Origin: an uncultured bacterium
GTDB lineage: Bacteria; Patescibacteriota; Minisyncoccia; Phycocordibacterales; Phycocordibacteraceae
NCBI GenBank assembly: GCA_947085985.1
Contig: CAMTYL010000003.1
Coordinates: forward strand, 362,108-426,107
Direction: 5' to 3'
DNA: 64,000 nucleotides
Shown: positions 21,338-64,000 of the stretch, piece by piece
Position numbering within the stretch: the first letter of the stretch is position 1
Layout: each line of letters starts with the position of its first letter
The notes under the pieces: model-generated
The model's database searches: none
The model's input: the letters and a program-made list of their open reading frames with translations, nothing else
What the model was told of the DNA's origin: nothing
Translations under genes and position numbers: made by a program

Positions 21338-21371
21338 ACGGCATTTAACGCCCCCCCCCCCACGATCTTTC

Positions 21372-21734: not shown

Positions 21735-21739
21735 GAGTA

Positions 21740-21843
21740 GCGAGAAACGACGTGGTTGCCGTCGTTCCACTCGTTCGGGTTCGTAACCGGATTGGCTTCG
21801 ACATTCCAGCCGTCGTCGTTCCAGTTGGCGTTCACCGCCCAGA
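21740..21843 (-). repeat. DGR template repeat TR1 (A-rich on minus strand)
   Basis: 104-bp near-identical to 22165-22268; all ~20 mismatches are T (plus) = A (minus) in this copy. Confidence 0.8.
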
Positions 21844-22161: not shown

Positions 22162-22779
22162 TCAGCGAGAAACGACGCGGCGGCCGTCGCGCCACTCGAG
22201 CGGGTACGCAACCGGAGAGGCCTCGACACGCCAGCCGTCGACGCCCCAGTCGGCGCCCACCGCCCAGAGGACTCCCTTCGCGTCAGCGACGTAGAAGATG
22301 AACCACTTGGACTTGTCGGCGGTCTTCAGGAACTCGAAGGTGTGCGCCAGGGCGACACGGGCCTTCTCGACCTTGTTCAGATCCTTGTCGCCGAGGGCGG
22401 CGAGGATCGGACCGTCGACAGACGACTTCCGCAGCTTGCGCTGCTTGGCCGTCATGGGCTTCACGTCTTCTTCGACGACATCGAGGAAATTCCCCTTGAA
22501 GTTGTCGCCGAGGTACGAGATCGGGAGTTCCCCGTTCCGATTGACCATGAACTTGTCGCGGGCGACGAAACGCTCGACGGCGGAGAGCTTCACGGGCTCG
22601 CCGACCTGTTCGAGCAAATCCGCGAGGACTTTCGGGGCGGCGGCGTGCTTGGCCTGACCCGCGTTGCCGGGTTCGGTAACAACGAGTTCGCCGCTCAACA
22701 CGCGAGCGATGGCGGATTCGCCACCAATTTTGTTGATGAGCGCCTCGACTTGGCCGAGGTTCACATTGCCGTACTTCAT
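22162..22779 (-). CDS. DGR target (variable) protein 1, 205 aa, C-terminal VR-encoded ligand-binding region
   Basis: C-terminus VLWAVGADWGVDGWRVEASPVAYPLEWRDGRRVVSR matches TR-encoded ...VWAVNANWNDDGWNVEANPVTNPNEWNDGNHVVSR. Confidence 0.75.
   Translation of the reverse strand: MKYGNVNLGQVEALINKIGGESAIARVLSGELVVTEPGNAGQAKHAAAPKVLADLLEQVGEPVKLSAVERFVARDKFMVNRNGELPISYLGDNFKGNFLDVVEEDVKPMTAKQRKLRKSSVDGPILAALGDKDLNKVEKARVALAHTFEFLKTADKSKWFIFYVADAKGVLWAVGADWGVDGWRVEASPVAYPLEWRDGRRVVSR
22165..22268 (-). repeat. DGR variable repeat VR1 at the 3' end of target gene 22162-22779
   Basis: Pairs with TR1; substitutions only at TR adenines; ends at the stop codon. Confidence 0.8.
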
Positions 22780-49249: not shown

Positions 49250-49388
49250 GGGCTGGCCATCTCGAGTTCGAACCGTATAGAACCAAGCCCTGCTTAGTCC
49301 GTTTGGTGAGTTTTCAGAAACCAAAACGACGCGTCTCGTGCACCTAGGAAAGTTACAAAAGTGACACAGGAATGAGGTTTTGGTGTCA
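49250..49388 (-). repeat. Copy A of a ~130-nt conserved 3'-UTR element with terminator hairpin (after RT2 stop)
   Basis: ~85% identical to 56290-56420; imperfect hairpin gggctgg...ccaagccc followed by U-run in minus sense. Confidence 0.6.
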
Positions 49389-49389
49389 C

Positions 49390-50385
49390 TTAAATAGTTA
49401 CACTATCCTGTAACGTTTGGACTCTGGTGGCGAGCTTTCTCGTATTTCCATGAGACATTAGGCCGAAATATGAACTCAGTCGTTCCTTGGACGTATTGTT
49501 CCTGAGCTTCGTAAACATCCTCCTTTTACTTACAGTCCTCAATACCCTGTGATCTGAGAAATGCACCCAGCCAAGAAAGTCCACGCCCGACGCAAAGGAC
49601 TTTATATATACCTTGTCCGGGTGCATGGTTAGTCCAAGATTGGTTTCTAGGAATTCATTCAACTGAGGGATGAGTGATTCAAGGTATCCTCGGTCTTCAC
49701 TGAGGAATACGAAATCATCAGCGTAGCGTATGTAGTACTTTGCCCGGAGACGGTGTTTAACGAACTGGTCGAATTCATTCATATACACGTTCGCGAAGAG
49801 TTGTGATGTGAGATTGCCAAGAGGTAGTCCCGTTTTAGGTGTAACCTCGAAGCTGGAGATTATCTCTCGTAAAAGATTCAGAATGTCTGGATCAGGAATA
49901 TGGGATTCAAGAATGGTCATCAGTTTGTTGTGCTTCATGGAGGCAAAGAACTTCCTGATATCGCACTTCAATACCCAGACCGTTCGAGTGTTATTGCGTC
50001 CTACCTTCTGAGAGAAAGCTTTGAATCTATCGAGAGCTTTATGTATGCCCTTTCCGTCACGACAGGAGTACGAGTCATGGATAAAGGTAGTATCAAAGAA
50101 TGGATATAGTTGGCGATATAGAGCGTGGTGCAGGAGCCGATCACGCACATTAGCCTTATGAATAATGCGAGGCTTGGGGTCAGAGATATTGAAACTTATA
50201 TATCCGCCATTGCGATACGACCTATTCTTTAAATCAGCGTGTAGGTCGAGGACGTGTCCCATGAGATTCGTTTCAAACTCCCGCACATCCTTTCGGGCGC
50301 GTTTTCCGTTCAAAAACTCTCGCCATGCGTCGAGTAGATTCTCCGTCGAGATGATATCTTGATATCTATGTCCGTACGCTCTCAT
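49390..50385 (-). CDS. DGR reverse transcriptase, copy 2 (paralog, ~60% aa identity to copy 1)
   Basis: YADD, LPLGNLTSQLFANVYMNEFD motifs. Confidence 0.85.
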   Translation of the reverse strand: MRAYGHRYQDIISTENLLDAWREFLNGKRARKDVREFETNLMGHVLDLHADLKNRSYRNGGYISFNISDPKPRIIHKANVRDRLLHHALYRQLYPFFDTTFIHDSYSCRDGKGIHKALDRFKAFSQKVGRNNTRTVWVLKCDIRKFFASMKHNKLMTILESHIPDPDILNLLREIISSFEVTPKTGLPLGNLTSQLFANVYMNEFDQFVKHRLRAKYYIRYADDFVFLSEDRGYLESLIPQLNEFLETNLGLTMHPDKVYIKSFASGVDFLGWVHFSDHRVLRTVSKRRMFTKLRNNTSKERLSSYFGLMSHGNTRKLATRVQTLQDSVTI

Positions 50386-50427
50386 ACCTCCAAGGCTACC
50401 CCCCCCCCGACACTTCCAGTGCTAGTG

Positions 50428-50760
50428 CAGGTCAAAAGTGTGTATATCCTTTGGAACTCTTACGCCGCAAAAATTCCTAAGACCGCTAAGTACTCTCTTG
50501 GTCTCAAGATAGATAATCTGTTTATAGATACGATTGAAGCAATTTCAATTGCCGCATTCCTACAGCGTGCCGAGAAACTTCCCTATCTCAAGAGAGCAAT
50601 TGCGCGAGTCGATACCCTGAAAGTCTTTCTACAGCTTGTATGGGAAATGAAGCTACTAGATACTAAGCAGTATGCGGAGATTTCAGAGAAGCTCTCGGAA
50701 GTAGGAAAAATGCTTGGAGGCTGGTACGGACAGGTAGTAAAGCAAAACTCCCCTGCATAG
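50428..50760 (+). CDS. avd: Avd-like four-helix-bundle protein, copy 2 (antisense to RT/TR strand); start uncertain
   Basis: ...KYSLGLKIDNLFIDTIEAI...LKVFLQLVWEMKLLDTKQYAEISEKLSEVGKMLGGW. Confidence 0.65.
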   Translation, partial: QVKSVYILWNSYAAKIPKTAKYSLGLKIDNLFIDTIEAISIAAFLQRAEKLPYLKRAIARVDTLKVFLQLVWEMKLLDTKQYAEISEKLSEVGKMLGGWYGQVVKQNSPA

Positions 50761-50781
50761 GCAGGAGAGAAATGAAGTAAG

Positions 50782-50907
50782 TTGCGAAGACGGAACACGA
50801 TGCGATTGTCGAGGTTCCACTGATTGTCGGGATTCGTCCAGTTCGTATTGAGCCACTGCTTGCCGTCCGAGTTCCGCTTGACGTTGAAGACGTTCGGGTT
50901 GCCGTCG
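50782..50907 (-). repeat. DGR template repeat TR2
   Basis: ~126 bp matching 51274-51398; ~24 mismatches, all TR-adenine (T on plus strand). Confidence 0.8.
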
Positions 50908-51257
50908 GAATCGGTTTGAGCGCCACACCATCTGTACCACCACCCCTTGAAAGTTCTTGGGGTTGAATCTTATGTGTGATCGTAATCACCAGTGTGACGC
51001 ACCAAGTATCTTCATTTTTGAAGTTTCTGCATACACCACGCTAGTTCAAATCGTAGTCGGAACTATTCTGGGTTGTATGGATACTGGGTTCGGTAGCAGA
51101 CGAGCCTATGGCTCCCGCGTATTCACCTACTGCCGTTTTTAAATATACCGTATGTAAATGTAGAAAGTCCCCGGGCGCATCACTGCGGCCGGGGACCCTT
51201 GATCGGAAGGACAAAGTATCAGAGGGACAAAGAGCCGAAGCTCTAGTCCCAAGGATC

Positions 51258-51956
51258 TTAGTCCTGAGTGACCTTGCGAAGACGGAACACGATGCGATTG
51301 CCGAGGCTCCACTGATTGCCGGGATGCGTCCAGTCCGCAATGAGCCACCGCTCGCCGCCCGAGCCCCGCCCGACGCGGAAGACGCTCGGGCGGCCGCCGG
51401 AAGCGGTAATCCGTTCCATCGCGATCCAGAGGACTTCGCCGTTGGGCTGATCCTTGTACTGGTCGCGGATGTGCGGACCCGCTTCCGCCGGAAGCAGTTC
51501 GACGACGTGGCCGTCGAGCCGTTCGGCGTTCTGCGCGCTCCACTCGGCAAGCCGGGTGGGATCGAGCAGTTCGGTCGTGGTCGGCATGCGCTCATAGCCG
51601 AAGTCGGCAGGGGTGAGGATGATCGTATCGATTTCCTCCTCCTTGTCGAGCGTCGTGAAGGCGTGGTTGTTGACCAGGCTCTTGGCGTAGTCGCTGACCG
51701 TGAAGCCAGCTTCGACGCGCTTGATGAGCGCCTTCTTGGCGACGCCGCCGATCAGGAACGTCCGCCACTTGGCGAACGCAGGCGTGACCACCAACAGGGG
51801 CGGTTCGGGCGTCTTCCCTTCGATGACGGCCTGGAGGGCCTTCATCACGTCGTCGAAGTTGGCATAGGAGCCGGACTTCACACGCCGGAACAGGTCGTTT
51901 TGGCGGACGGCGAGCTGACCCAGCTGACCGTCGGTGACAAGAGTCTTGGTATTCAT
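51258..51956 (-). CDS. DGR target (variable) protein 2 (233 aa from ATG 51956), paralog of target 1
   Basis: Shared FTVSDYAKSL../ISYLGDNFKGNF.. core and VR-encoded C-terminus ...ERWLIADWTHPGNQWSLGNRIVF. Confidence 0.7.
   Translation of the reverse strand: MNTKTLVTDGQLGQLAVRQNDLFRRVKSGSYANFDDVMKALQAVIEGKTPEPPLLVVTPAFAKWRTFLIGGVAKKALIKRVEAGFTVSDYAKSLVNNHAFTTLDKEEEIDTIILTPADFGYERMPTTTELLDPTRLAEWSAQNAERLDGHVVELLPAEAGPHIRDQYKDQPNGEVLWIAMERITASGGRPSVFRVGRGSGGERWLIADWTHPGNQWSLGNRIVFRLRKVTQD
51274..51398 (-). repeat. DGR variable repeat VR2 at the 3' end of target gene 51258-51956
   Basis: Pairs with TR2; A-specific substitution pattern. Confidence 0.8.
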
Positions 51957-52357
51957 GATATACCTCGTCGTGACAGTACTTTGCCGTTCAAGCTCACCAG
52001 TGTTCGGGTTCGCCACAGCGGAGAATGGCCTAGATAAGCCGCTCTTCGCTGTGGCGAATTCGCAAGGTTTTCAAGGAACAAGTCCGTACCACAGTATCAC
52101 AATATACGGGTAAAGTCAAGTCATTTTGACCGTTCCCGCTCAGAAGAATATCCTTATCAAATATGAGCCAAATAGTTATCGGGGTCGTCATTGCCGTTAT
52201 ATCGGCCATCATCATTTCCCTATTCCGAATTGGTGGAAATCAGAACGTAACGGTACATCACGTACAAAGCACTCATCGTGCTGGGACTCTTTGGAAACTA
52301 ATGATTGTTCTAGGCTGGGGCAGTGAAGTTCCCTCGCGAAGGAGCGGAGCAGCTTAT

Positions 52358-52645
52358 TCAGCAGATCGTACACTTTGGTGTCGAGAAGCATGACGACCTT
52401 GCAGACGCGTTCTCTGCTCTCGTCTTGGACGCGATTGCCGATCCTCCAAGAACCTTCAGGAGGAACTCTGTAAAAGCAGGATCGTCTTTTGAAACCTCTA
52501 TATCAATATCTATATCAGTAAGGTTCCGGGGTACTCCGTATGCATAACAAGCGAAGCCACCTGTTATACACCAACGCAGATTCAGTTTATCCAGAATTGG
52601 GATAATGAATGAGAGCGCTTCGTGTGCTTTTTGTTGTTCAGGAGT
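52358..52645 (-). CDS. Nucleotidyltransferase-domain protein (minimal NTase/ANT-like); C-terminal tail atypical, possibly truncated at ~52440
   Basis: LRWCITGGFACYAYGVPRNLTDIDIDIE (GG...DID motif). Confidence 0.45.
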   Translation of the reverse strand, partial: TPEQQKAHEALSFIIPILDKLNLRWCITGGFACYAYGVPRNLTDIDIDIEVSKDDPAFTEFLLKVLGGSAIASKTRAENASARSSCFSTPKCTIC

Positions 52646-52652
52646 CATAAGG

Positions 52653-53150
52653 TTAGTTGTTTTGAGCTTCCTCAAAGAAGAGAATTTCTCGTGGAAGAAT
52701 ATACTCTCCCTCCCATTGTGTCGGGGTGCTTTCACTCAATAACCGCATTACTTCTTCAATCGGGAGCCATAGAGTCTGAAAACCTCTTTCTTTTTCACTC
52801 TCAGTTAGTTGAGGTTCACCCTTATCCCCTACTAACTTTGCAAGATAGCAATATGAAATCTGCTTTTCATTATCTTCCTTCCAATATTCAGTCGTAAAGC
52901 CAAGTTCCCGTATCACCTCAATTTCGCATCCTATCTCTTCCTGACATTCTCGGTTAAGGGCAATAATCTTATCTTCATCGCCTTCTAGTCCACCACCAGG
53001 AAGCTTGTAGTAGTTATCTCTACTTACATTTAGTAAGGCGATTAATCCTTGGTCATCGGATACGATTGCTCGCGCTGCTTCTCGTATTTTGTATCCCGAA
53101 GCTTCTTCGTGAGAGACATTTCTAGGATTAATTAGGCCAAGATCTTTCAT
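52653..53150 (-). CDS. NUDIX hydrolase
   Basis: Nudix box GGGLEGDEDKIIALNRECQEEIGCEI. Confidence 0.7.
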   Translation of the reverse strand: MKDLGLINPRNVSHEEASGYKIREAARAIVSDDQGLIALLNVSRDNYYKLPGGGLEGDEDKIIALNRECQEEIGCEIEVIRELGFTTEYWKEDNEKQISYCYLAKLVGDKGEPQLTESEKERGFQTLWLPIEEVMRLLSESTPTQWEGEYILPREILFFEEAQNN

Positions 53151-53153
53151 AAC

Positions 53154-53876
53154 TTAAAACTTTTTAAACCATTTGACCGTCGCCTTATATAAAGCTTCTT
53201 GCTTCCCGTCTTCTGAGAAATTATGATGAGCGCCCTTTATTACTACAAGTTCTTTCTTCTGGGTAGTTCCCTTGAACATCTTCTGTGCGCCATCTAGGTT
53301 TCCATCTATATTGTCGTCTACAGTGATGTAAGAAATTGGTTGCTCGAATGTCTTGAGTAGATCAACAGATTTGATTGTGTGGGAATCCTTGGCCATCTGC
53401 TCACCGACGACAATGTAGTACCCGAAATCAACGAGGCGACCTTTTGGCTTCTCAATACGTTCAGGCATATCAACATGGTTCGTGGGAAGTATAGAGCCGT
53501 CCCAAGCGGCAACTGCCGTAAAGCTTCGGTCTTTGGTATGAAGAATTGATGGGAATCCGTAGCTGTGTCCTGTGATGAAGATCTTCTTCGCACCCTTAGA
53601 TTTCAAGTACTTTAGAACAGAATCAATATCCTCTCCGTGCGTCGAGAAAGTGGTCTCATCCAGTCTCCTTGAGCCCTTTTCCCAAGCATATAGATTGAAT
53701 CGTAAAGATGAGAATCCCTGCTTTTCAAAGTATCGAGCTGCGTTATATTGCAACGCTGTATTCATATCTCCTGCCAGGCCATGTACTTGCACGATGACAG
53801 GTTTACGCAAAGAACCGCGAAGAATGGCCTGAATGGTCTTCCCTCCAGTGGTCTTTATTTTGAGTACCTTTTCCAT
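53154..53876 (-). CDS. Alpha/beta-hydrolase (dienelactone-hydrolase-like)
   Basis: ITGHSYG nucleophile elbow. Confidence 0.65.
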   Translation of the reverse strand: MEKVLKIKTTGGKTIQAILRGSLRKPVIVQVHGLAGDMNTALQYNAARYFEKQGFSSLRFNLYAWEKGSRRLDETTFSTHGEDIDSVLKYLKSKGAKKIFITGHSYGFPSILHTKDRSFTAVAAWDGSILPTNHVDMPERIEKPKGRLVDFGYYIVVGEQMAKDSHTIKSVDLLKTFEQPISYITVDDNIDGNLDGAQKMFKGTTQKKELVVIKGAHHNFSEDGKQEALYKATVKWFKKF

Positions 53877-53923
53877 ATCTTAATTGTATCGCAGGCACCC
53901 GAAAAGGAAACGACGTGTTCTAA

Positions 53924-54364
53924 TCACTGAATATCCTGTTTGGGAGCATTGGGGAAATTGACCTCATCCCAGAGCGAAACGATCTGTGGCTTCAGCATCC
54001 AGTACGCCCTTCCTTCTGGAGTATTCGCAAGCACTTCTTGTAAACGCTCTGGTTTATCTCCAAACTTATTTCCGTATAGCTGATTAACCCTCTCAACATC
54101 ATCAAGAGCAACTTCAAATGCCTCTCCCACTATTTGCACTGCTTGTTTATGTTCTGAATCATGCACTACAGTGGCGGCTGCTTTTGGATTGTTTAGTATC
54201 TCCTTAGAGTGCTGTCGGGAACGTGCCGAAGTCCAATAGAGATTACCCTCCTCATCAGCGACAAAGTATACGTTACAGATCCACGGACCATTCTCGCCCA
54301 CAGTCGCCAACTGCATAAGCTTGTTAGCACTTAAAAATTCTTTGAGGATATCCTTCGGGTTCAT
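53924..54364 (-). CDS. Pyridoxamine 5'-phosphate oxidase-like FMN-binding protein (general stress protein 26 family)
   Basis: 146 aa, PNPOx-like split-barrel pattern. Confidence 0.6.
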   Translation of the reverse strand: MNPKDILKEFLSANKLMQLATVGENGPWICNVYFVADEEGNLYWTSARSRQHSKEILNNPKAAATVVHDSEHKQAVQIVGEAFEVALDDVERVNQLYGNKFGDKPERLQEVLANTPEGRAYWMLKPQIVSLWDEVNFPNAPKQDIQ

Positions 54365-54711
54365 AAGGCAACTATATCTGCAACGATCTCAGGAAAAGTT
54401 GCATCGTTAAAATGCTTTCTGTCTTCAAAGATTCGAGTCTGCGCCGAAGGTAGTTCCTTGTGGTATCGCTCAAAGTTACTGAACGGAACACTCTCATCGT
54501 CTTTGCTATGGTAGAGAATTATTTCGCCTCCTTGTCTTTCCAGATCAGAAAGATCGGTCAGGATATTGAAGTCTACATACGGATGGTCGTCCAGAGCGTT
54601 GTATGGAGCTGCCACTAAAAGCGTGGCTTTTATCTTCATTGGGTACTTCTCCTCGGAGAGATACTTTGCGAGGAATATTCCACCGTATGCCGGAAAACAC
54701 GAACCGATCAT
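54361..54711 (-). pseudogene. C-terminal fragment of a YdeN/RBBP9-type alpha/beta hydrolase (N-terminal nucleophile half missing)
   Basis: Retains ...LVAAPYN...ILYHSKDDESVPF... C-terminal half only; abuts recombinase fragment. Confidence 0.45.
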
Positions 54712-55222
54712 AAGCCAGGAGCTTTTTAGAAAGGTTCAGGAAAAACTAGACACCAACACACATGAGAGCAAGGGCGATAAAGAATTCGCTTTCACCAAGC
54801 TCATGAAGTGTGGCATGTGTAAATCAGGCGTAACGGCTGAAGAGAAATACAAAAATCTTGCTGATGGATCAATCAGAAAGTACATCTACTACGGGTGCAC
54901 CAAATTTCATGACAAGAACTGCAAAAACACTTACTTACCTGAAACTGATCTAATCTATCAGCTTACTGAAATTATTGATCGCATAGACATCAATCAGGTC
55001 GGTGTTAAGGATAAGCTTGAAAAAGAGATCGAACGCTATGTAGATTTCAGAAGTAAGGTTTTAGGAATGACCGAGGATGACAAGATACGCCAGAATCGTC
55101 TAGATATTCGAGGCTACATGAAATACATTCTTGAGAAAGGTGCGATTCAGGAAAAACGAGAATTAATGCAATCGTTTACGAGCCGACTAATACTCATTAA
55201 TAAAAGAGTTGTACTGGAGTAA
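54690..55222 (+). pseudogene. C-terminal fragment (zinc-ribbon + coiled-coil) of a large serine recombinase; catalytic resolvase domain absent
   Basis: HEPIISQELFRKVQEKL followed by CGMCKSG...YYGCTKFHDKNC zinc ribbon; no upstream resolvase domain. Confidence 0.6.
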
Positions 55223-55231
55223 GTGTGAAAT

Positions 55232-56215
55232 TTATTTAGTAAGCACCTCTACCAATGAGTCTAAATTCTCAGAAAGATATTTGATTCTCTTGTGATCGTC
55301 AAAGAGGAAATGGTCTACACGAGTATTTCCTTTCAGGTAATGCTCACTCTCTACCCAGAAACCGTGAATGGTTTTAACGAAGTAAAGCTGCAAACCTCTT
55401 TTAATCTCATCTTTCGATATCGGGTAAACGCTTGAGTACGCATCTATATATTTTCTCGCATTCTCCAAATCAGCTTTTGTAACGTCTGCGGAGAGAAGTC
55501 CGTATATCATCGACCTGAAGATTTCATATGTTCTAGGAGAATAGTTTGTCTTCTCAAGATCAAACACCCACTTCACCTTGTCCTCCTCATCAAAGAAGAC
55601 ATTATGATCAAGATAGTCACCATGTATCAAATGGTCGCAGTTTAAGCCCAAACTCTCAAAAGTCATTGTGTTTTTTAAAAGAAGCCCCTTTTTCATCTGC
55701 ACATTTTCAAGCGCAACTTTATCAAAATCACTCAGAAGGCTGACCTCTGATATTTTAACTAAGATATCTTCGATCTTCTTAAATGTCTTTTCTTCATTCT
55801 CAATCTTAAACTGATCGTCTATAGCCAGTTTTGATTCTTTGCCGAGGAGATGAATCTTTCCCAACATTTGACCAAGAGAAATAATGGACGCTTCAGTCAG
55901 ATTACCCCTTTCAAGATGCTTGCCTTCGACAAAAGGAAATAGTGCGTAATAAGCACCATCATGTTCAAAAAATGTATTTCCATCTAAAAGTGATATAGGA
56001 AGAATCACTGGAATACCACCGTCAGCAAAATACTTTTTGGAAGCATGGACTTCGGCAATTCGATTAGAGTTATCAAACCTGTACTTCTTTAAAAAGAACC
56101 TGGTCGTTCCGTCTGAAAGAAAATAATTATCGCTTAAAAAGCCTCTTGTTACCTTTTCAGAAGAGGAGACGTTGGTTCCATACAAATGATTTATTTTTAC
56201 TAAAATCTCTTCCAT
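55232..56215 (-). CDS. Phosphotransferase-family kinase (APH/choline-kinase-like)
   Basis: LIHGDYLDHNVFFDEE...WVFDLE (HGD catalytic loop, D...DLE). Confidence 0.7.
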   Translation of the reverse strand: MEEILVKINHLYGTNVSSSEKVTRGFLSDNYFLSDGTTRFFLKKYRFDNSNRIAEVHASKKYFADGGIPVILPISLLDGNTFFEHDGAYYALFPFVEGKHLERGNLTEASIISLGQMLGKIHLLGKESKLAIDDQFKIENEEKTFKKIEDILVKISEVSLLSDFDKVALENVQMKKGLLLKNTMTFESLGLNCDHLIHGDYLDHNVFFDEEDKVKWVFDLEKTNYSPRTYEIFRSMIYGLLSADVTKADLENARKYIDAYSSVYPISKDEIKRGLQLYFVKTIHGFWVESEHYLKGNTRVDHFLFDDHKRIKYLSENLDSLVEVLTK

Positions 56216-56289
56216 AAATGCAATTATAACCTTTCTGTACCTTAAGCTGTACTTACAGCAATTCGACCCGTCTAGGTCGCCGGGTACCA

Positions 56290-56420
56290 AAAACTAAGCT
56301 GCTGGCCGTCTCGAGTTAGAACCGTGGCCGGTCAAGCCCTGCTTGGTCCGTTTGATGAGTTTTCAAAATCCAAAACGACCCGTCTCGAGCGCTTTCAAAG
56401 TGACAAAAGTGACACTCCCC
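56290..56420 (-). repeat. Copy B of the ~130-nt conserved 3'-UTR element (after stop of 56420-56923 gene)
   Basis: ~85% identical to 49250-49388. Confidence 0.6.
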
Positions 56421-56923
56421 TAGGATGTTGGCCAGAGCTTCTTTTTGAAGTAAAAGTAAAGTGTAAAAAGGATTACCGAAACTCCTACTGGTGGAAACGC
56501 ATAGAGAGTAAGGGCAAATAAGTTATATCCAATCGAGAGAATTCCATTGAGGATATCTACAACCAAGGGAACGATTACAAAGAACATCGCACCCATGAGG
56601 AGTACCCAGATGATTGCCTTTGCCTCCTTGAACGATTGCCAATCCCCAAGTATCCGATACAACCCTTTGTAAAACTTAATCTTATATAGAAAGGCACCGA
56701 GGGTAACGAACGTAAGTGCGCTGTAGAAGATACGCACGAATATAGACGGTGGGTCTATCGGACTGATATCTGTCCACGTGAAGGACTTCCCCATTCCATA
56801 AACCCACAGCAAAAATGCGAGAGTACAGATAACGGAGAAGGCCGCCCCTGATAGAATCTCTTTTCTATATTTTCTCAGTATCCTTCCGTACCAGCTCATT
56901 TTAGTTTCTTCGGTAAAGCCCAA
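56420..56923 (-). CDS. Hypothetical 4-TM membrane protein
   Basis: 167 aa, four hydrophobic helices; overlaps upstream HNH gene by 23 nt (operon). Confidence 0.5.
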   Translation of the reverse strand: MGFTEETKMSWYGRILRKYRKEILSGAAFSVICTLAFLLWVYGMGKSFTWTDISPIDPPSIFVRIFYSALTFVTLGAFLYKIKFYKGLYRILGDWQSFKEAKAIIWVLLMGAMFFVIVPLVVDILNGILSIGYNLFALTLYAFPPVGVSVILFTLYFYFKKKLWPTS

Positions 56924-57998
56924 ACTTAAGTATCTTTTGAGCTGGTGTTAAAAGATGTTCTGGCGTTTGGGACAAATTAGTGATTATGCGTTCAAAAGGA
57001 TTGAACGCGTGGCCTCCACCAAAGTTAGGAAGATTCAACTCTTCCGGCATCGCACCAAGAACTATCTTATATATAGCTTGCCCACCAAAGAAGGTCATGG
57101 TCGCAACAATCTGACCATCTTCAAGTACAAAGTTTATAAAATGCATTATTACTCTCCGACCTTCATCTCGCTCTAATTTTAGAACCGGGTCTTGAGTAAT
57201 CGAGACGATTATCTCTTTCATTACACCCTCGCCAGAATGTATGAAGTTTCGAATTTTATCGAAATGCTGGCTGAATAGGATATCCCTTTTACCATCCTGG
57301 ATAGCGCAGTATGCGAAATAATTAAAAGCTATTTTTGCAAAGACACGTGCCAAATCTCTATCGACTGAACAGGAATACTCCTCCTCAATAGTAATTTTGT
57401 CGCCAGGTTCAAACTGATGACCTTTAGATGCTTTTTCTTTGTAGTTAACTCCATACTCATGTAGCAAACTAATCATACTTTTTACTTCCTCTTGAGTCTC
57501 TCCGAAGATAGCAATGTCTTTCTGATCTAGTTTCTGCATGTCTGCAGAAAGCTTTTTAAACTCGCGTCCTCCTTTAGGGACTGAGCGCAGAGCTTCAGGT
57601 CTGAAAACCCGGAAACCACCCTTGAGTCTTCGAAGCTTTATCTGATTTTTTAAGGCAGGAACTATCCTGTTCTCTTTAGGTTCAAGAAACAGGAACATCT
57701 CATTGAAAAATTCATCCCCAAATCCATTCAATCGAGTGATTTTGAACTGATTATTTCTAATAGTGACACTTCCTCTACCATCCAGGTTAAGACGCTGCCC
57801 AAAAACACCCTCGCAAGTATCCTCTGTAAAGATAGTTTCGAGTCGGGTAAAGACCTCAGAATTGCATATGTCACACACGACATCTCCTTTGATTGTCGCG
57901 TTCGAATCGAAGGTTCCAAGACAGCGCGGCATTACATGTTCACGCGAATTGAAAGTCGTCTCTGGCTCACCCTTCAAGCAATATACGCATTGGGACAT
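56901..57998 (-). CDS. HNH-endonuclease-domain protein with uncharacterised C-terminal domain
   Basis: N-terminal CVYC...REHVMPRCLG...CDICN HNH/zinc-finger pattern. Confidence 0.6.
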   Translation of the reverse strand: MSQCVYCLKGEPETTFNSREHVMPRCLGTFDSNATIKGDVVCDICNSEVFTRLETIFTEDTCEGVFGQRLNLDGRGSVTIRNNQFKITRLNGFGDEFFNEMFLFLEPKENRIVPALKNQIKLRRLKGGFRVFRPEALRSVPKGGREFKKLSADMQKLDQKDIAIFGETQEEVKSMISLLHEYGVNYKEKASKGHQFEPGDKITIEEEYSCSVDRDLARVFAKIAFNYFAYCAIQDGKRDILFSQHFDKIRNFIHSGEGVMKEIIVSITQDPVLKLERDEGRRVIMHFINFVLEDGQIVATMTFFGGQAIYKIVLGAMPEELNLPNFGGGHAFNPFERIITNLSQTPEHLLTPAQKILKFGLYRRN

Positions 57999-58003
57999 AC
58001 GGC

Positions 58004-61000
58004 TTATAGCAAGTCACGAAACTCTTCAATCAAGCCAATTGACCCGAGATAGTGAATAAGGTCATTCGTGATTTTTATTGCTTCAGCATTTTCGGTAGCC
58101 TTAACCATCTTTATTACTTCACGGTATTCTTCCTTCTTATACAGATGCTCATATGTATCCCGCTCAGCACGAGCAATGAGGTCTAAAGTCGTAGTGGTTT
58201 CAACGGGAAATTCCATTGCGTAGGACTTAAGTTCTTCTGCAATCTCATATGGAACATCGATAACACCATCAATAAGCTGTAGCGTCTTAATGGTTCGCTC
58301 CAGTGTTTCTTTTTTCGGGAATGGACTAACCTTGAACCACCAGCCAAATTCCCTGATTTCTTCGGCATCAATCCTTTCCTTAGGTAGAGCAATCCTAGCG
58401 TCCCACAGCCTTCCTAGTCGCTCTTTGACGCTTTCCTTATCCTCAAAGGACTCGAGTTGCCGGAGGATAACTCTACCTATGAAGTTTATTGCTTCTGATC
58501 TTTGTTGTGCGGGTGCGTTCCTAAAGAAATGTTCAGTAAAATCATCATGCTCGGGTTCATTTGTGTAGACAATTGCTGCATGCTGAGCAAACCGTTGATC
58601 AACGTCAGCAGCTCGATAGCCTTTCTTTTCAGCGGTTCCAAGGTAAGGGACAAAGTCCTTGTACTGTTCCTTAAGGATTGTAAAGACCTCTTTGATTACA
58701 TTATTGGCGAGATACCCTTCCCAAGCAGCCCATAAGTACTCAGGTGAATTTTTATCAAAAATTTTATGCTTGTTTTCCTCAAGCCATGCCCCATTTAGAT
58801 AGGAGAAATTCGGAACTCTCCAACCATATACCGAACGAATAGCTAAAGACGGATCCTGAGTAGAGTCTAGATGTCTGTCTAACAATTCCTGCATGGCAGG
58901 AGTCATTTTGTTTTCAATAGTCTTATCTGAGAGATTACGCGCTGTCCATAGACCGAAATTAACTACGGCATGCATAGCTTCGCCTCGTACGGTATTTATC
59001 GCTAGGGTCATTGGATCTAGTCCACCCTCACTGTCACGTTTCTCATACTCAGTGGTTGGGTCCGGGTCTTCAGCAAGATTAGTTATGATTTCCCATACCC
59101 TATCCTGAAAATTAATAGGTACTTCGCAACTATTCTTACCAAGGGCCTCTCCCAAGAAATCCGCAATCGCTAAGCGTACTGATTTCCAATCTTGTTCGTC
59201 ATTTGCTGGACTTACATCTGTCTCGTCTTTAACTACAACTCGGTATAGCAGTTCAATGACTTCTTCCCATGCAAAGCATTTATCTTTCCTTAAAGATTCT
59301 TTAAGGCCGTGGACCAGATGATAGAAAAAGATGGGGCGGATTTTCTTCTCGAAAAGCAGACCAAGCACCGCCACATACTTTTCGGGATTCTGAGCAACGA
59401 GTTCAGCAAAAATCATACCTAGACCTCCAGTCGAGTGCCTACCAAACGGGTCATCAGGTATTTTGTAGTCAACAAAATATTGCAAAGTCTCCTTCGCATC
59501 TAACCTTGCTAGGTCTTCTGAAGAAATGGGACTTTTACCCCCGTCCCACATAACCATCTCGCCGTCATGATCAGTTGGCTCACCATACTCTTTGACGATA
59601 CCTTGATACTCGTCTGCTTCCTTGACAGGGAGATTCTCCCCTATCGCCCTTAGGTAGAGTCCCTTCCAATCTGATTTAACCCGCTCGAATTCTTCTTCTG
59701 TGAGAGTGTCGTTTTTCTTAAACTCAGGACCTTCCTCAATAACCTTCAAAATCGAGTCTTTTGCTTCAGGTGACAGATTCCCAAACTGCAATCGCAGCAA
59801 AGGTAGGTATTCTCTCCGCAAATTGTATGAAATCGTGACCTTTCTCTCAGTCAGAATTTCTTCGATTTCCTTTGGAAACGGCTTGGGGTTCAATATGTAG
59901 GTCCAAAGCTCAATTCGTCTAAAAAGAGCCCACGGGTGAGATTTGAGAATCGTAACGAAATCTCTCATAACCTCATGATTATCCTTATTTTCCTCAATTA
60001 GCTTTATAACCCCATCAAGGAGCGTATCCTTTGCGTCGTCTCTACTGTGCCTAGACGACCTTAAGTTCGGACGCCATATATGAGAATACTCATAGTACGT
60101 ATCATCCGATTTATCTATCCTATCTTCTAGTTCTAACGCTTGGCGCAATTTAGATGTAAGTACTGCAAACAAACCTTTTGGATCAACCTTTGCCAATTCG
60201 ACAGTTTTCTCTTTAATAATTTCCCCAAACCTCCATTCGTCGAAATATGGCTTTGCGTCACGCCCAATGAAACGCATCGGACCCTCCTCATCGTCAGTTG
60301 CTGGTTTATCTACTTTTGTATCGAGTAGAACATTCGCTAGTTTTAAGGCTTCCTTAACCTTTCCTTCTTTTGCCAGCTTCTCCATCAACTCAGCAACTTT
60401 GTCAGGCAAAAGTAGATTATACGAATTTTGTATCCACTTATTCTTACAAATTAGGTCTACGTACTTCACTGCGACATCTGCAGGTGACTTAAGCGCCATT
60501 GATACAAAATCGTCCAATACAGACTGATTGTCGGAATTTAAGTTCTTAACAATGTCGAAGACAACTTCTGGCTTTTGCTCAGCCACCTTCAGTAAGTACT
60601 GAGATTCAGGCCAACCAACGAAACGAATATACCCTCCTTCCCTGAGGGGTTCTTGGGGCGCATTAAAAGCACCGACATCCCTCAGAGGCTCAAGCCAGTT
60701 CTGATTATCGCATCTCTCAAAAAAGTACTTTCTATGCTGTGGCTGAACAATTACTTTTGCGAGGATACTTAAATGCTCAGGAGTCGGATCATTAACAACT
60801 AAAAGCTTATCGATTTCAGCAACGCCATCAAAAAATGGAGTCTCGACCAAGACTTGGTATAGGAGGTCCTCGTACCTCCAAACCATCAATTCAAACTCCC
60901 TTTCAAGAATTCCAGCAATTTGTTTATTCTTGAGATCATCGTGCTTTGAACCTTTATGAAAGAAGGTCTGCACCTCAATCCAATCTTCAACAAACTTTCT

Positions 61001-61384
61001 TCTTAAGTATTCAGGCAGTGCGCTTCTATCTGCGTGCCTGCTGAGTAAATCTTGAAGCATTTGCTTCTGGCCGCCGGTATTCGCTACCTGAACTGACTCA
61101 TCTTTGGCTAGCAATGGGATGCCTTTGAAGTAACGTGGCAAGATTGCAGTCAGCTCACGAGCAGAATGTGACACTTGGCCAATGCGGTCGGGATTTCTTT
61201 TGTTATTAAAAGTGATTACTAATCCCTCATAAATCCCCGCCAACTTCTTGCACAGCTCTGGAGACTCTGAATCTAGTCTTAATAAAGCGTCGCGGATTTT
61301 CTTTTGCCTCACTTCGGCGGACGACAAAACATCTTCAGTATCAACTGAGTTTTCCAAGCCCTCGTCTTTAAATTGGTCCGCCAC
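58004..61384 (-). CDS. Large uncharacterised protein (1126 aa), predominantly alpha-helical, no NTPase motifs detected by eye
   Basis: Long AT-rich ORF with uniform coding signal; no Walker A/B, no known domain recognised. Confidence 0.55.
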   Translation of the reverse strand: MADQFKDEGLENSVDTEDVLSSAEVRQKKIRDALLRLDSESPELCKKLAGIYEGLVITFNNKRNPDRIGQVSHSARELTAILPRYFKGIPLLAKDESVQVANTGGQKQMLQDLLSRHADRSALPEYLRRKFVEDWIEVQTFFHKGSKHDDLKNKQIAGILEREFELMVWRYEDLLYQVLVETPFFDGVAEIDKLLVVNDPTPEHLSILAKVIVQPQHRKYFFERCDNQNWLEPLRDVGAFNAPQEPLREGGYIRFVGWPESQYLLKVAEQKPEVVFDIVKNLNSDNQSVLDDFVSMALKSPADVAVKYVDLICKNKWIQNSYNLLLPDKVAELMEKLAKEGKVKEALKLANVLLDTKVDKPATDDEEGPMRFIGRDAKPYFDEWRFGEIIKEKTVELAKVDPKGLFAVLTSKLRQALELEDRIDKSDDTYYEYSHIWRPNLRSSRHSRDDAKDTLLDGVIKLIEENKDNHEVMRDFVTILKSHPWALFRRIELWTYILNPKPFPKEIEEILTERKVTISYNLRREYLPLLRLQFGNLSPEAKDSILKVIEEGPEFKKNDTLTEEEFERVKSDWKGLYLRAIGENLPVKEADEYQGIVKEYGEPTDHDGEMVMWDGGKSPISSEDLARLDAKETLQYFVDYKIPDDPFGRHSTGGLGMIFAELVAQNPEKYVAVLGLLFEKKIRPIFFYHLVHGLKESLRKDKCFAWEEVIELLYRVVVKDETDVSPANDEQDWKSVRLAIADFLGEALGKNSCEVPINFQDRVWEIITNLAEDPDPTTEYEKRDSEGGLDPMTLAINTVRGEAMHAVVNFGLWTARNLSDKTIENKMTPAMQELLDRHLDSTQDPSLAIRSVYGWRVPNFSYLNGAWLEENKHKIFDKNSPEYLWAAWEGYLANNVIKEVFTILKEQYKDFVPYLGTAEKKGYRAADVDQRFAQHAAIVYTNEPEHDDFTEHFFRNAPAQQRSEAINFIGRVILRQLESFEDKESVKERLGRLWDARIALPKERIDAEEIREFGWWFKVSPFPKKETLERTIKTLQLIDGVIDVPYEIAEELKSYAMEFPVETTTTLDLIARAERDTYEHLYKKEEYREVIKMVKATENAEAIKITNDLIHYLGSIGLIEEFRDLL

Positions 61385-61436
61385 AGACCAATTTTATCAT
61401 TTTTGGCCTGATTTATAGCCCTGTGGGGTACGCGTC

Positions 61437-61703
61437 TTAACGTACACTCTTGTGCCTATGGTCAGACGGTCGGCCAATGAAGTAGCTGTAGTCCTTCATA
61501 AAAAGCTGGCACAAAATAATCAGGTCATGAATCTTGAGGCTGCGCTCCCCACTCTCAATCAAGGAGATAGCTGTCGGCGATTCGTATTCTAGAAGGCTCG
61601 CAAGGTTTGTTTGCGAGTAGCCCGCCTCCACGCGGCAGTCCCTAATCTTCTGTCCGATTTCCCTATCCAGGTCTTTGAAGGTCGCTTTCTTTGTCATATC
61701 CAC
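61437..61703 (-). CDS. XRE-family helix-turn-helix transcriptional regulator
   Basis: IRDCRVEAGYSQTNLASLLEYESPTAISLIESGERSLKIHDL HTH_3 pattern. Confidence 0.7.
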   Translation of the reverse strand: MDMTKKATFKDLDREIGQKIRDCRVEAGYSQTNLASLLEYESPTAISLIESGERSLKIHDLIILCQLFMKDYSYFIGRPSDHRHKSVR

Positions 61704-61810
61704 ACTATATCTCTATTGACCAAGTTTACCAATTTGATAAACTTGTAACGGAGTTCCCGGAGGAGGTAGCAAAAAAGCATGACGTGCGATTAATCATTAT
61801 CTTTTTTGCT

Positions 61811-63088
61811 ATGTCCCATAAACTAACTTGGACTACGGTCCAGAAGCGGGTGGACGATCTCGTCCCCCAGGAGGTAAATCCTCGCATTATTACCGACAAG
61901 CAGATGTCGGACCTGAAGCGCAGTCTCAAGAAGTTCAATCTTGTTGAGGTTCCCGCAATCGATATGAACGGCAAGATACTTGCCGGGCATCAGCGTATCA
62001 AAGCATTGCAGCTCCTCGGCCGTGGAAACGAACTTATCGATGTTCGTATTCCAAACCGCAAGCTCACGAAGCAGGAGTCAGACGAATACCTCCTTGCTTC
62101 CAACAAGCTTGGCGGAGACTGGGACTTTGAACTTCTGAAGTCCTTCGATCTCGGAACGCTTGAGTTCGCAGGGTTCGATGATGTCGAGCTCGCGGAAATC
62201 TGGGACGAGGATAAGTCTGTCGAAGATGACAGCTTCGATGTAGAAAAGGAACTTAAGAAGATTAAGGAGCCGGACACAAAGCTTGGTGACCTTATCACGC
62301 TCGGGAACCACCGTATCCTCTGTGGCGACTCAACCAAGCCCGAGAATCTGAAGCGTCTCCTCGGCACCGAGAAGGCGGTAATGATTTATTCGGACCCCGT
62401 CTACAACATTGATATCGATTACAACGGCGGTATCAGCGGCAAGCAGAAGTACGGCGGTGATGTGAATGACACCCGTACGTTCGAGGAATACCGTACATTC
62501 CTTAAGAGGAGTCTTGAGGCGGCACTCGCCGTATCTGCTACAGACACTCATGTCTTCTACTGGTGCGACCAGGTGTACATCGGCGTACTTCAGGAGCTAT
62601 ACCGTAGCCTCGGCATTGCGAACAAGCGAGTGTGCCTTTGGCTTAAGAACAGCCAGAATCCTGTTCCCTCTGTAGCGTTCAATAAGGCGTATGAGCCTGT
62701 GGTGTACGGCGTTCGCGGGAAGCCGTATCTGGCTGAAGCGGTTACGACTCTGAACGAAGTACTGAATAAGGAAATGGGTACGGGGAATGAACTTCTAGAG
62801 CAGGTAGAGGATGTCTGGATGGCGAAGCGTCTTTCCGGCAAGGATTATGAGCACGCGACCTCGAAGCCGCCCCAGCTTCACGAGAAGGCTATCAAGCGGT
62901 GTACGAAGCCAGGAGACATAATCCTCGACAGCTTCCTTGGTTCAGGTAGTACCCTCATTGCAGGAGAAGCACTCGGACGGAAGGTGTATGGTTGCGAACT
63001 TGAGCCTGCATTCTGCGACCTCATGATTCGCCGGTATGAGAAGCTGACCGGCGCAAAGGCAAAGGTAAAGAGGTATGAAGAAGACTAA
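61811..63088 (+). CDS. ParB-like nuclease domain fused to DNA N6-adenine/N4-cytosine methyltransferase (beta-class, orphan)
   Basis: ParB-N region ...VEVPAIDMNGKILAGHQRIKALQLL; MTase motif IV SDPVYN (D/SPPY) and motif I ILDSFLGSGST. Confidence 0.75.
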   Translation: MSHKLTWTTVQKRVDDLVPQEVNPRIITDKQMSDLKRSLKKFNLVEVPAIDMNGKILAGHQRIKALQLLGRGNELIDVRIPNRKLTKQESDEYLLASNKLGGDWDFELLKSFDLGTLEFAGFDDVELAEIWDEDKSVEDDSFDVEKELKKIKEPDTKLGDLITLGNHRILCGDSTKPENLKRLLGTEKAVMIYSDPVYNIDIDYNGGISGKQKYGGDVNDTRTFEEYRTFLKRSLEAALAVSATDTHVFYWCDQVYIGVLQELYRSLGIANKRVCLWLKNSQNPVPSVAFNKAYEPVVYGVRGKPYLAEAVTTLNEVLNKEMGTGNELLEQVEDVWMAKRLSGKDYEHATSKPPQLHEKAIKRCTKPGDIILDSFLGSGSTLIAGEALGRKVYGCELEPAFCDLMIRRYEKLTGAKAKVKRYEED

Positions 63089-63518
63089 GAAGGTTGTAGA
63101 GAAATTCTTAGCTGAACTTGAGCGCACCCCTATCGTTGGAGCTGCGTGTGAAAAGACAGGACTCTCACGCAATACGGTATATCGCTGGAGGAAGGAGGAT
63201 CGTGAATTCGCCGCTCACTTTGATTACTCACTCTACCAAGGAATCGCGGTTGTGAGTGACGTGGCTGAAAGCAACGTACTCAACGGTATCAAGAACAAGG
63301 ACGCTGGCTACACCAAGTTCTGGTTGAGTAGCAGGCACCCGGCATATCGAAAGGTCTTCTTTAATCGAGAAGAAAAGCGAAAGAACCCTTTGGCTGATCC
63401 TGCGGAGCAAGCTCGCGTAAAGAAGGAGGTAAAGAGAATCTTTAGGGAGTGGGATGCATATGGACCCAAGGGCCCTCCACCTGATGAGCCAGAGGACAAG
63501 AAGCGTAAGAAGTCCTAA
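63075..63518 (+). CDS. Phage terminase small subunit-like HTH protein
   Basis: N-terminal ...AACEKTGLSRNTVYRWRKEDREF... typical TerS HTH; basic C-terminus. Confidence 0.5.
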   Translation: MKKTKKVVEKFLAELERTPIVGAACEKTGLSRNTVYRWRKEDREFAAHFDYSLYQGIAVVSDVAESNVLNGIKNKDAGYTKFWLSSRHPAYRKVFFNREEKRKNPLADPAEQARVKKEVKRIFREWDAYGPKGPPPDEPEDKKRKKS

Positions 63519-64000
63519 AGTACCTTTTCTCCGTCGAAGACAATGCTTTCAGGTTTCCAGCTTTGAGGATTTGAGAGGTCTTCCCTGCTTGCTCCCGAGT
63601 AGACCATCACTACTTCCCAACTGGAGCGAATCGTTGCACCGAACCCATTCTGACTATCAACACACGATGTGACCCTGAATCGATTGTCGCCGAGGTCTTG
63701 CGTCGCCGCATCGCAGAAATCTGCTGTTGAGGGAGACTTGAGAATGTTCAGAACGTAGTCCTCGGCGTAGGTGCTTGGATAGACTGTCTCTGCGATTGGT
63801 CTCGGAGCAGGTTCAGAACCAGTGTCTGAAACTATCGCTATAAGAATCGGAGAGGCAATCAGAACTACGAGAAATACTTTAATGAGATTCGACATCGGCT
63901 TGCGAATAGCACTCCGACAGTTCGGACACTTCTTCGCTAAAGCAGATATATCTGATTGGCACTGCGGACACTTAACAGTGTCCGTTGTTTGCTTGTCCAT
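63515..64000 (-). CDS. Zinc-ribbon membrane-anchored protein (CxxC-x11-CxxC, one TM, extracellular domain)
   Basis: MDKQTTDTVKCPQCQSDISALAKKCPNCRS then TM helix; ATG at 64000. Confidence 0.45.
   Translation of the reverse strand: MDKQTTDTVKCPQCQSDISALAKKCPNCRSAIRKPMSNLIKVFLVVLIASPILIAIVSDTGSEPAPRPIAETVYPSTYAEDYVLNILKSPSTADFCDAATQDLGDNRFRVTSCVDSQNGFGATIRSSWEVVMVYSGASREDLSNPQSWKPESIVFDGEKVL

Follow-up and report, generated by a model that had tools for sequence, protein, structure and literature searches.

In the 64,000-nucleotide stretch of DNA analysed here (contig CAMTYL010000003.1 of assembly GCA_947085985.1, from an uncultured Patescibacteria bacterium, referred to throughout as the window), two oppositely oriented genes, one for a large serine recombinase (LSR) and one for a YdeN-type serine hydrolase, have both lost their 5' portions and are joined head to head at 54684|54685. 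We favour, with a probability of roughly 0.68, an account in which the right end of the window carries two tandem integrative elements, E1 and E2, the first of which has a dead recombinase beside the scar of a foreign gene block, block A. Specifically, the two elements would have inserted one after the other by a tRNA 3' end, E1 being the older, and E1 would have lost the front 60% of its LSR gene when the 2.2-kb block A came against it. Since the joins lack homology, the hydrolase–LSR join would have been made by homology-independent (illegitimate) recombination during cargo turnover, either because one foreign fragment was captured at a break and the LSR 5' region was lost, or because two deletions trimmed a longer cargo array.

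The hydrolase remnant (hyd', 54361-54684, minus strand) represents the 3' 54% of a PF06821 serine hydrolase gene and is carried by a minus-strand open reading frame (ORF) spanning 54361-54711. Over positions 54360-54684 it shows 86% nucleotide identity to the hydrolase gene of a related locus, L008, and its product aligns gap-free over 107 residues, with 89% amino acid identity, to residues 92-198 of a 198-aa PF06821 protein (P0001). The homology starts at GGIFL, just past the GHSL of the GHSLGG nucleophile elbow: where P0001 reads ...IFIGHSLGGIFLTKYL..., the window reads ...AYGGIFLAKYL..., and the elbow is gone together with its nucleophile serine. The C-terminal half of the PF06821 fold, comprising the region with the acid and histidine residues, is present in the alignment to P0001. 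Having lost residues 1-91, the nucleophile serine included, hyd' cannot, as judged from its sequence, be an active hydrolase.

On the other side of the join, LSR'' (54685-55222, plus strand) consists of the 3' 40% of an LSR gene, namely the end of the recombinase domain, the zinc ribbon and the C-terminal tail. Its nucleotide homology tract (54685-55223) is 90.9% identical to the recombinase gene of locus L009, while the encoded product shows 97% amino acid identity to the protein P0121 up to the stop codon, and corresponds to residues 264-437 of the 439-aa LSR of L008. Of the three Pfam domains that define such enzymes (PF00239, PF07508 and PF13408), LSR'' retains only positions 79-102 of the 102 positions of the recombinase domain, that is 24 of 102, followed by Zn_ribbon_recom (E 6.7e-7) and a C-terminal region with a putative coiled coil; the catalytic domain PF00239 is absent. 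A fragment of this composition cannot carry out catalysis or cut DNA. All of the 120 top protein-database hits to LSR'' (P0121-P0240) likewise lack PF00239/Resolvase, and many of them, diverged ones included, begin at MILGSQAKLENDN; the shortness of these entries is most likely due to broken contigs or to gene calling. A genuine LSR-like family devoid of the catalytic domain was rejected, as an uninterrupted ORF of ~440 aa is encoded at 74 of the 80 genome loci described below. A tblastn extension of the LSR homology to 54506 was also discarded as spurious, this stretch being 86% identical at the nucleotide level to the antisense strand of the L008 hydrolase gene; the LSR homology begins at 54685, because the nucleotide homology to LSR genes starts there.

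One homology tract ends exactly where the other begins, with microhomology of at most 1 nt, and the join is the same in seven independently assembled Logan contigs (L001-L007) from two sequencing projects, four of which are 100% identical across it. Since the join offers no more than 1 nt of shared sequence, a k-mer-based assembler could not have bridged it into a chimera. In addition, when the missing N-terminal parts (for the recombinase, residues 1-263 of three family members) were searched by tblastn against the six-frame translation of the window, neither was recovered, the best match having an E value of 0.18 at unrelated positions. The position 54684|54685 is a real genomic breakpoint, and neither an assembly nor a frameshift artefact. 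The initial annotation had recognised this junction, but had placed it at 54690-54711, 6-27 nt away; alignment to full-length homologues, as it had proposed, located the exact join. Its description of a recombinase reduced to its tail and of a hydrolase without its nucleophile half holds, and the escape that it had allowed for, full-length genes recovered through alternative frames, was looked for with tblastn and rescued neither gene.

A second join lies at the other end of block A, at ~52451|52452. Positions 52317-52451 (plus strand) encode ...KFPREGAEQLIQQIVHFGVEKHDDLADAFSALVLDAIADPPR, the conserved C-terminus of the terminase large subunit (TerL) in more than 20 related loci; these ~45 codons around HDDLADAF were identified by tblastn against the TerL genes of related elements, of which the one in L040 matches phrog_38 with E 6e-79. 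TerL residues 1-432 are absent from the window by tblastn. This remnant (TerL') abuts a 3'-truncated NTase gene (NTase', 52452-52648, minus strand), which retains the first ~66 of ~175 residues, after which the ORF reads into antisense TerL' to 52358. Full-length homologues of NTase' measure 170-177 aa, and the alignment is confined to query residues 2-66.

Between the two joins, block A (52452-54684, 2233 bp, 43.4% GC) contains, in this order and all on the minus strand, NTase', a NUDIX hydrolase (52653-53150; PF00293, E 2.7e-14; PADLOC PDC-S07, E 1e-10), an alpha/beta hydrolase (53154-53876; Abhydrolase_1, E 4e-8), a PNPOx-like protein (53924-54364; PF01243, E 2e-11) and hyd'. The block has a truncated gene at both ends and is wedged between the TerL remnant and the LSR remnant. 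As there are two breakpoints, one deletion between neighbouring genes alone cannot explain both.

By its composition and its closest homologues, block A is of foreign origin, since its GC content of 43.4% compares with 52% for the host, and hyd' is closer to the gene in the 43%-GC Parcubacteria contig L008 (86% nucleotide identity) than to P0027 (75.6% nucleotide and 72% amino acid identity; 48.9% GC). P0027 is an intact 192-aa paralogue of the truncated hydrolase (L112 50-628, sample ERR3478707); it was found in the same sample series and is most likely the organism's own intact copy. Its gene content marks block A as part of one of the long arrays of small-enzyme genes that are common in Parcubacteria, in which NUDIX proteins, methyltransferases, kinases, hydrolases and PNPOx proteins are found. 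Homologues of the alpha/beta hydrolase in JGI metagenomes are at most 83% identical and none has the block A neighbours, while the closest PNPOx homologues (76-83%) lie in long small-enzyme arrays without an LSR. Thus, neither the alpha/beta-hydrolase scan of the JGI metagenomes nor the PNPOx homologue loci yielded an intact donor or precursor of block A. In L099 (448-2938), a relative with ~72% nucleotide identity to the host genes, an alpha/beta-hydrolase homologue is found beside RNase J, a different chromosomal place which indicates that this gene moves on its own.

The context of the junction emerged from a comparison that overall took in about 95 related loci. Scanning the GTDB species genomes with the recombinase alignment led to 80 loci (listed as L012-L090), nearly all labelled Patescibacteria. 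In 74 of these 80, the LSR is uninterrupted and ~440 aa long, with the catalytic motif YARKS(T/S)E and the Resolvase, Recombinase and Zn_ribbon_recom domains. Directly upstream of the LSR, on the same strand, about 30 loci carry a ParB-methylase gene, an optional second methylase, TerS, usually TerL, and an optional small ORF; a divergent XRE gene is often present, and sometimes a diversity-generating retroelement (DGR). On the basis of this synteny, the backbone of the family runs from XRE (minus strand) through ParB-methylase and TerS to a small ORF and the LSR, with a second methylase before TerS and a TerL after it as optional members. Intact relatives measure 7-12 kb. The element in L080, for example, is 7.1 kb end to end with host genes on both sides and no TerL; its order is a repeat, five reverse-strand cargo genes (including one for a ThsB-like TIR protein), ParB-methylase, TerS, a zinc-ribbon gene on the minus strand, a small ORF and the LSR. 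Two family members are listed as viral in IMG/VR, and full-text searches, within the limits of the literature covered, did not turn up any account of the family.

Among the relatives, between 49 nt and 7 kb separate the TerL stop codon from the start of the LSR. Where this gap is larger, it is occupied by genes for a type IIG restriction-modification enzyme, for an AbiL/AriA-like ATPase, for a ThiF/JAB (E1-E2) pair, for a PifA-like KAP NTPase together with a ResIII helicase, or for an IS256 transposase. Given these large gaps and their varied genes, the interval is a cargo hotspot of the family, and it is in this interval that block A sits, as its flanking TerL and LSR remnants indicate. The coordinates of the anti-phage cargo slots, one of which is occupied by IS256, are L030 6603-9401, L083 7831-9045, L090 6820-8196, L073 2698-7735, L035 5819-6862 and L080 5873-6280. 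N-truncated LSRs are found elsewhere in the clade of LSR'', starting from residue ~93 in L009-L011 and from residue 135 in L016, so that the LSR has lost its 5' end next to the hotspot more than once. As for their surroundings, in L009, L010 and L011 (3082-5052) the truncated LSR adjoins a 211-aa gene that resembles, by eye, a DGR target (putative), whereas in L016 (745-2564) it adjoins an inverted TerL fragment.

The relatives also point to the insertion site. A tRNA gene lies at most 6 kb downstream of the LSR in 51 loci; in every one of them it is encoded on the opposite strand and points its 3' end towards the LSR, in many cases from a distance of only 97-250 nt. The tRNA type (Gln in 27 loci, Ser in 11, Arg in 8, other in 5) tracks the LSR clade, and in the clade of LSR'' it is tRNA-Gln in 8 of 8 loci. 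By this arrangement, the LSR family targets tRNA 3' ends.

In the window, two direct repeats with 82% identity to each other flank the region occupied by E1. The left copy ([95]L, 49251-49367; nhmmer E 1e-24) is a candidate distal attachment site (attL) of E1, while the right copy ([95]R, 56301-56415) would mark, as a candidate attP-like site, the E1/E2 junction. The first ~23 nt of the repeat resemble a tRNA 3' end in a degenerate manner (15/23 nt). Immediately to the left of [95]R, positions 56262-56300 (GACCCGTCTAGGTCGCCGGGTACC...) form a right-end arm of E1 that matches the sequence between element and tRNA-Gln in L012, L014, L016 and L017, all belonging to the LSR'' clade; the local alignment score is 62, against 19 ± 3 for shuffled sequences. 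Both the start of the repeat and its left flank thus align to the tRNA-Gln 3' ends and flanks of relatives, which ties the flanking repeats to the target. Further copies were found in L008 (1461-1555, 11391-11481 and 17049-17141), L017 (1883-1973), L028 (3546-3637), L080 (3790-3882), L088 (2796-2888) and L097 (10743-10835); the repeat, of ~95-116 nt, is 75-85% conserved across genomes and always lies 20-46 nt past the stop codon of an unrelated gene. The three copies in L008 separate cargo blocks. A search of IMG/VR with a degenerate pattern of the repeat gave no match. A known RNA was considered and ruled out, as there is no Rfam match, no tRNA called by ARAGORN and a weak fold. Taken together, these features suggest that the ~95-nt repeat is derived from an attachment (att) site.

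From [95]R onwards, the window presents reverse-strand cargo genes, a ParB-like methyltransferase (ParB-MTase), TerS and a zinc-ribbon gene on the minus strand, which is the order of L080, the window adding an XRE gene on the minus strand before the ParB-MTase. We infer from this arrangement that the right end of the window is an accretion site of two tandem elements: first E1, decayed and spanning about 49251-56300, and then E2, which would extend from about 56300 to beyond 64000 and resembles the intact relative L080. Beyond the window, a small ORF, an LSR and a tRNA gene are predicted to complete E2.

Several observations weigh against this account. L008 has both genes at full length, a hydrolase and an LSR, 5 kb apart and divergent just as in the window. 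The ~95-nt repeat occurs in only 7 of the roughly 95 related loci; it has no Rfam family, whether at the gathering threshold or at E <= 10, its consensus fold is weak (-3.6 kcal/mol), and the repeat-carrying loci L080 and L008 have no tRNA within 10 kb. Neither a tRNA (ARAGORN) nor an intact LSR is found within the window, so that the completeness of E2 and its tRNA anchor are predictions. Moreover, all six TerS-carrying Logan contigs end at ~64042-64065, within ~25 nt of the start of the zinc-ribbon gene, which suggests a repeat or a strain-variable branch point where the model places the next backbone genes. LSR'' has a GC content of 39% against 56% for TerL' (the latter over 135 nt only), a gap wider than in the intact relatives, and by this difference the two may not come from one element. 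Finally, the dN/dS of both fragments relative to their nearest homologues is 0.008-0.076 and neither holds a stop codon; such low values give no sign of decay and would imply that truncation took place late in comparison with the divergence or, with lower probability, that the fragments are still used.

The layout of L008 (LSR on the minus strand at 3512-4831, hydrolase on the plus strand at 10001-10597, ~5 kb apart) is just the precursor expected under a simple internal deletion, in which hydrolase and LSR would have been divergent neighbours and one deletion would have taken both 5' ends with the DNA between them. The cargo found in the TerL-to-LSR interval of several relatives and the blunt join, typical of deletions, agree with this explanation, and because of L008 a plain deletion within a cargo array stays viable for the right-hand breakpoint. 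It nevertheless leaves the second join at ~52451|52452 unexplained and needs at least one more event; furthermore, identity between the LSR of L008 and LSR'' reaches only 44% along the aligned C-terminus, against 89% for the hydrolases, and no contig with an intact array beside this LSR clade was found. Overall, we regard a simple deletion as unlikely. Of the internal deletion or rearrangement named in the initial annotation, the dead integrase is supported, and one simple deletion is supported only in part.

A further explanation concerns the tandem arrangement itself. The sequence from [95]L to the ParB-MTase could form one cargo region of a single composite element, with [95]R as an internal cassette boundary and TerL' and LSR'' as captured debris. 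The three repeat copies separating cargo blocks within 16 kb of L008, the constant position of the repeat 20-46 nt after a stop codon beside unrelated genes and the 17 GC points between LSR'' and TerL' would all fit. On the other hand, in four loci of the same clade the right-end flank next to tRNA-Gln is matched by the 40 nt preceding [95]R, as if the end of E1 had been kept, and L040, L012 and L008 likewise show an LSR followed by one reverse-strand gene and then the flank. Two tandem elements account for these two features, and the composite element appears to us distinctly improbable.

It could also be argued that LSR'' is retained as a functional DNA-binding protein, made of zinc ribbon and coiled coil, which would for instance modulate or block related LSRs. 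Its 178 homologous codons run without a stop, dN/dS is 0.027 relative to L009 and 0.008 relative to L012, independent N-truncated copies exist in the same clade (L009-L011 and L016), and gene callers predict ORFs of 135-199 aa. However, there is no conserved start codon or upstream signal, and the callers place the start differently, the 199-aa prediction opening within sequence that is antisense to the hydrolase. A truncation that is young compared with the 9-17% nucleotide divergence would produce the low dN/dS just as well, and the truncation points differ (residues 93, 135 and 264), as in random decay. A retained function for LSR'' appears very improbable. Lastly, although metagenome-assembled genomes can hold chimeric joins and contigs of this population break nearby (~64065), an assembly chimera or sequencing frameshift hiding two intact genes is practically dismissed by the same join in the 7 contigs assembled independently in two projects, by the <=1 nt shared there, which leaves no k-mer bridge, and by the absence of the missing halves from all six frames.

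Returning to the favoured account of tandem elements with a block A scar, E1 keeps its left repeat, a DGR, 45 TerL codons, the last 178 LSR codons, an APH gene and the right-end arm. Compared to intact members, it has lost XRE, ParB-MTase, TerS, TerL residues 1-432, the small ORF and LSR residues 1-263; the breakpoint of the loss running from XRE to TerL falls somewhere in 52017-52316. The APH-family kinase (55232-56215, minus strand; PF01636, E 5e-19; 37% GC) occupies a second cargo slot, located downstream of the LSR and before the E1 right end, which in relatives holds 0.1-5 kb of varied genes. Since its recombinase has no catalytic domain, E1 cannot excise by itself, and would be immobile unless a related enzyme, possibly that of E2, acts on its outer sites.

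The DGR of E1 comprises a reverse transcriptase (RT; 49390-50385, minus strand; RVT_1, E 9e-25), 45-57% identical to the RTs of the related elements L040 and L086, the accessory protein Avd (50359-50760, plus strand; bAvd, E 6e-12), a template repeat (TR; 50782-50915, minus strand) and a target gene (51258-52016, minus strand) with the variable repeat (VR) at 51274-51407, of which the TR is a 134-nt repeat. All of the 21 mismatches between TR and VR fall at T of the TR on the plus strand, that is at A on the coding strand, so that TR and VR diverge at template adenines only, and the set of RT, Avd and repeat pair is complete. Comparison of the window with L001 over 20 kb and with L002 over 8.8 kb revealed 7 and 18 differences, respectively, and every one of them lies within 51293-51385, inside the VR. 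The DGR of E1 is active in the natural population. A second DGR was observed within the host part of the window, at 20336-22779, with an RT (20336-21337, minus strand), an Avd-like gene (~21372-21689, plus strand), a TR (21739-21846) and a VR (22164-22271) at the 3' end of the minus-strand ORF 22162-22779.

In E2, positions 56420-61703 form a reverse-strand operon that encodes, from its 5' end, an XRE regulator, a Dsr1-like protein, an HNH_5 protein and a membrane protein. The XRE-type helix-turn-helix (HTH) regulator (61437-61703, minus strand; HTH_3 and HTH_31, E 1e-7) belongs to the backbone and is divergent from the ParB-MTase, as in relatives. The 1126-aa Dsr1-like protein (58004-61384, minus strand) is a candidate defence gene product identified by PADLOC (Dsr1, E 1.4e-48); it has no Pfam domain and covers positions 303-1206 of the 1227 of the Dsr1 model, the SIR2 NADase domain not being found, and distant homologues of it occupy the same slot in L025 and L107. 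The HNH_5 nuclease-domain protein (56901-57998, minus strand) matches PF14279 right at the Pfam cutoff (E 2.4e-6) and phrog_35254 (E 2e-14). The membrane protein (56420-56923, minus strand) is known as an ORF, has no Pfam, PHROG or PADLOC family, and has a 35% identical homologue within the TerL-to-LSR gap of L030. This operon could represent a variant of Dsr1 in which the nuclease effector is a separate protein.

The remaining visible backbone of E2 starts with the ParB-like/N6_N4 DNA methyltransferase (61811-63088, plus strand; PF01555, E 6e-30), whose frame is open back to 61691. It is 81% identical to the L080 protein, and its ParB-like N-terminus was identified via the L040 homologue (47% identical), which matches phrog_620. 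The TerS-like HTH protein that follows (63075-63518, plus strand; phrog_4044, E 2e-9; weak in Pfam) is syntenic with TerS in more than 30 loci, and in relatives lies directly upstream of a true TerL. The zinc-ribbon membrane protein (63515-64000, minus strand) has weak zinc-ribbon Pfam matches; its gene runs on past the window to ~64042, encodes 175 aa in L094-L096, and has a zinc-ribbon counterpart at the same position in L080.

These data redraw the region that the initial annotation had described as one AT-rich mobile island, or prophage remnant, from 52450 to the window end. Positions 1-49091 have a GC content of 52.3%, and the window up to 49 kb holds ordinary chromosomal genes (RNase J, BipA, DEAD-box helicase, MltG/YceG, AcrB, SAM synthetase and photolyase); 2-kb host windows have a mean GC fraction of 0.522, with a standard deviation of 0.018 and a minimum of 0.477. 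All 2-kb windows across 52452-61384 lie at 0.397-0.437, five to seven standard deviations under the host, and it is for this tract only that the composition deviates as in an integrative element or genomic island. The sharp GC drop at ~52.4 kb is thus borne out, whereas its reach to the window end is not, as low GC stops at ~61.4 kb and 61437-64000 (XRE, ParB-MTase, TerS and the zinc-ribbon gene) is back at 49-51%. Homologues of the island genes come nearly all from Parcubacteria/Paceibacterota-type Patescibacteria. Horizontally acquired mobile DNA is therefore a fair description, but the single unit with these bounds gives way to two tandem elements; the comparison with related genomes, which the initial annotation had proposed, likewise returned a mobile family across ~95 loci and not one island. 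The term prophage remnant applies only in so far as the family has TerS and TerL in its backbone; of these, the window holds the TerS-like gene and the 45-codon TerL remnant. Virion structural genes are missing: Pfam and PHROGs found no capsid, portal, tail or lysis genes among the ORFs at 49-64 kb of the window, nor in the 7-12-kb intact relatives. An island fixed by the loss of its integrase, also claimed, is plausible for E1 alone, the integrase being dead; E2 probably has its own recombinase a short way beyond the window, and the DGR of E1 remains active. The cargo list given (NUDIX, alpha/beta hydrolase, PNPOx, APH, HNH, XRE, ParB-MTase and TerS) was confirmed by Pfam, PHROG and PADLOC, with the exception of the NTase, a fragment of ~66 residues whose match to ANT(2'') is under the Pfam cutoff (17.8 against 21 bits).

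The junction itself is an ordinary integrase pseudogene in a decaying island, which is a known class, and the family context is the more useful lead. A joint reading of the whole can be put forward tentatively, at somewhat less than even odds: the family would consist of undescribed 7-12-kb satellite-like elements in which the LSR clade sets the tRNA target (Gln, Ser or Arg), which stack in tandem with a ~95-nt att-derived repeat between them, and which swap defence, DGR and small-enzyme cargo at two fixed slots. With the same reserve, falling a little short of an even chance, the junction would be the scar of sloppy cargo turnover by the LSR gene, a process that repeatedly kills the recombinase. 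The mobile elements of Patescibacteria (candidate phyla radiation) are poorly charted, and this locus led to ~80 genome loci of one LSR family, which offers testable att-site candidates and a route to defence islands in these genomes. In addition, E1 indicates that a dead element can still host a DGR that diversifies in nature.

By comparing the locus with known systems, the closest relation at the level of the recombinase is with enzymes of the phiC31/Bxb1 type. LSR'' aligns with the C-terminal domain of the Listeria phage A118 integrase (PDB 4KIS/6DNW), including the HEPIIS motif and the zinc ribbon, and differs from A118-type LSRs in having no catalytic domain and 24 of the 102 recombinase-domain positions. 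Classical phage LSRs integrate into protein-coding genes, whereas this family adjoins tRNA 3' ends. Similarly, hyd' keeps the HSKDD and RKHFN region of YdeN-family hydrolases (PF06821), from which it differs by the loss of residues 1-91.

As for the architecture, staphylococcal cassette chromosome elements (SCCmec/SCC) are moved by the serine recombinases CcrAB or CcrC into the rlmH 3' end, where tandem units and recombinase-less pseudo-SCC units are found. The likeness lies in how the system works, with LSR-moved islands, tandem accretion at the 3' end of a conserved gene, direct repeats and recombinase-less units. In our case, the anchor is a tRNA gene instead of rlmH, the backbone is made of ParB-methylase and terminase, and the cargo consists of defence, DGR and small-enzyme genes instead of mec. 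With tRNA-inserted islands of the Islander/TIGER type, the locus shares the deviant GC, a tRNA-proximal integrase and a tRNA-3'-like repeat both distally and between units. Such islands usually have tyrosine integrases and an exact duplication of the tRNA 3' end, while here the recombinase is a serine recombinase and the tRNA-like part of the repeat is degenerate (15/23 nt).

Finally, phage satellites (phage-inducible chromosomal islands and P4-like elements) resemble this family in their small size of 7-12 kb, in the presence of an integrase, a regulator and packaging genes, in the lack of virion genes and in their anti-phage cargo slots. Some family members have both TerS and TerL, and others, such as L080 and the visible part of E2, have TerS only. 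Unlike those satellites, for which a helper phage, a packaging site and induction come into the description, this family is known from its genes alone, and it is from this gene content that we infer its satellite status.

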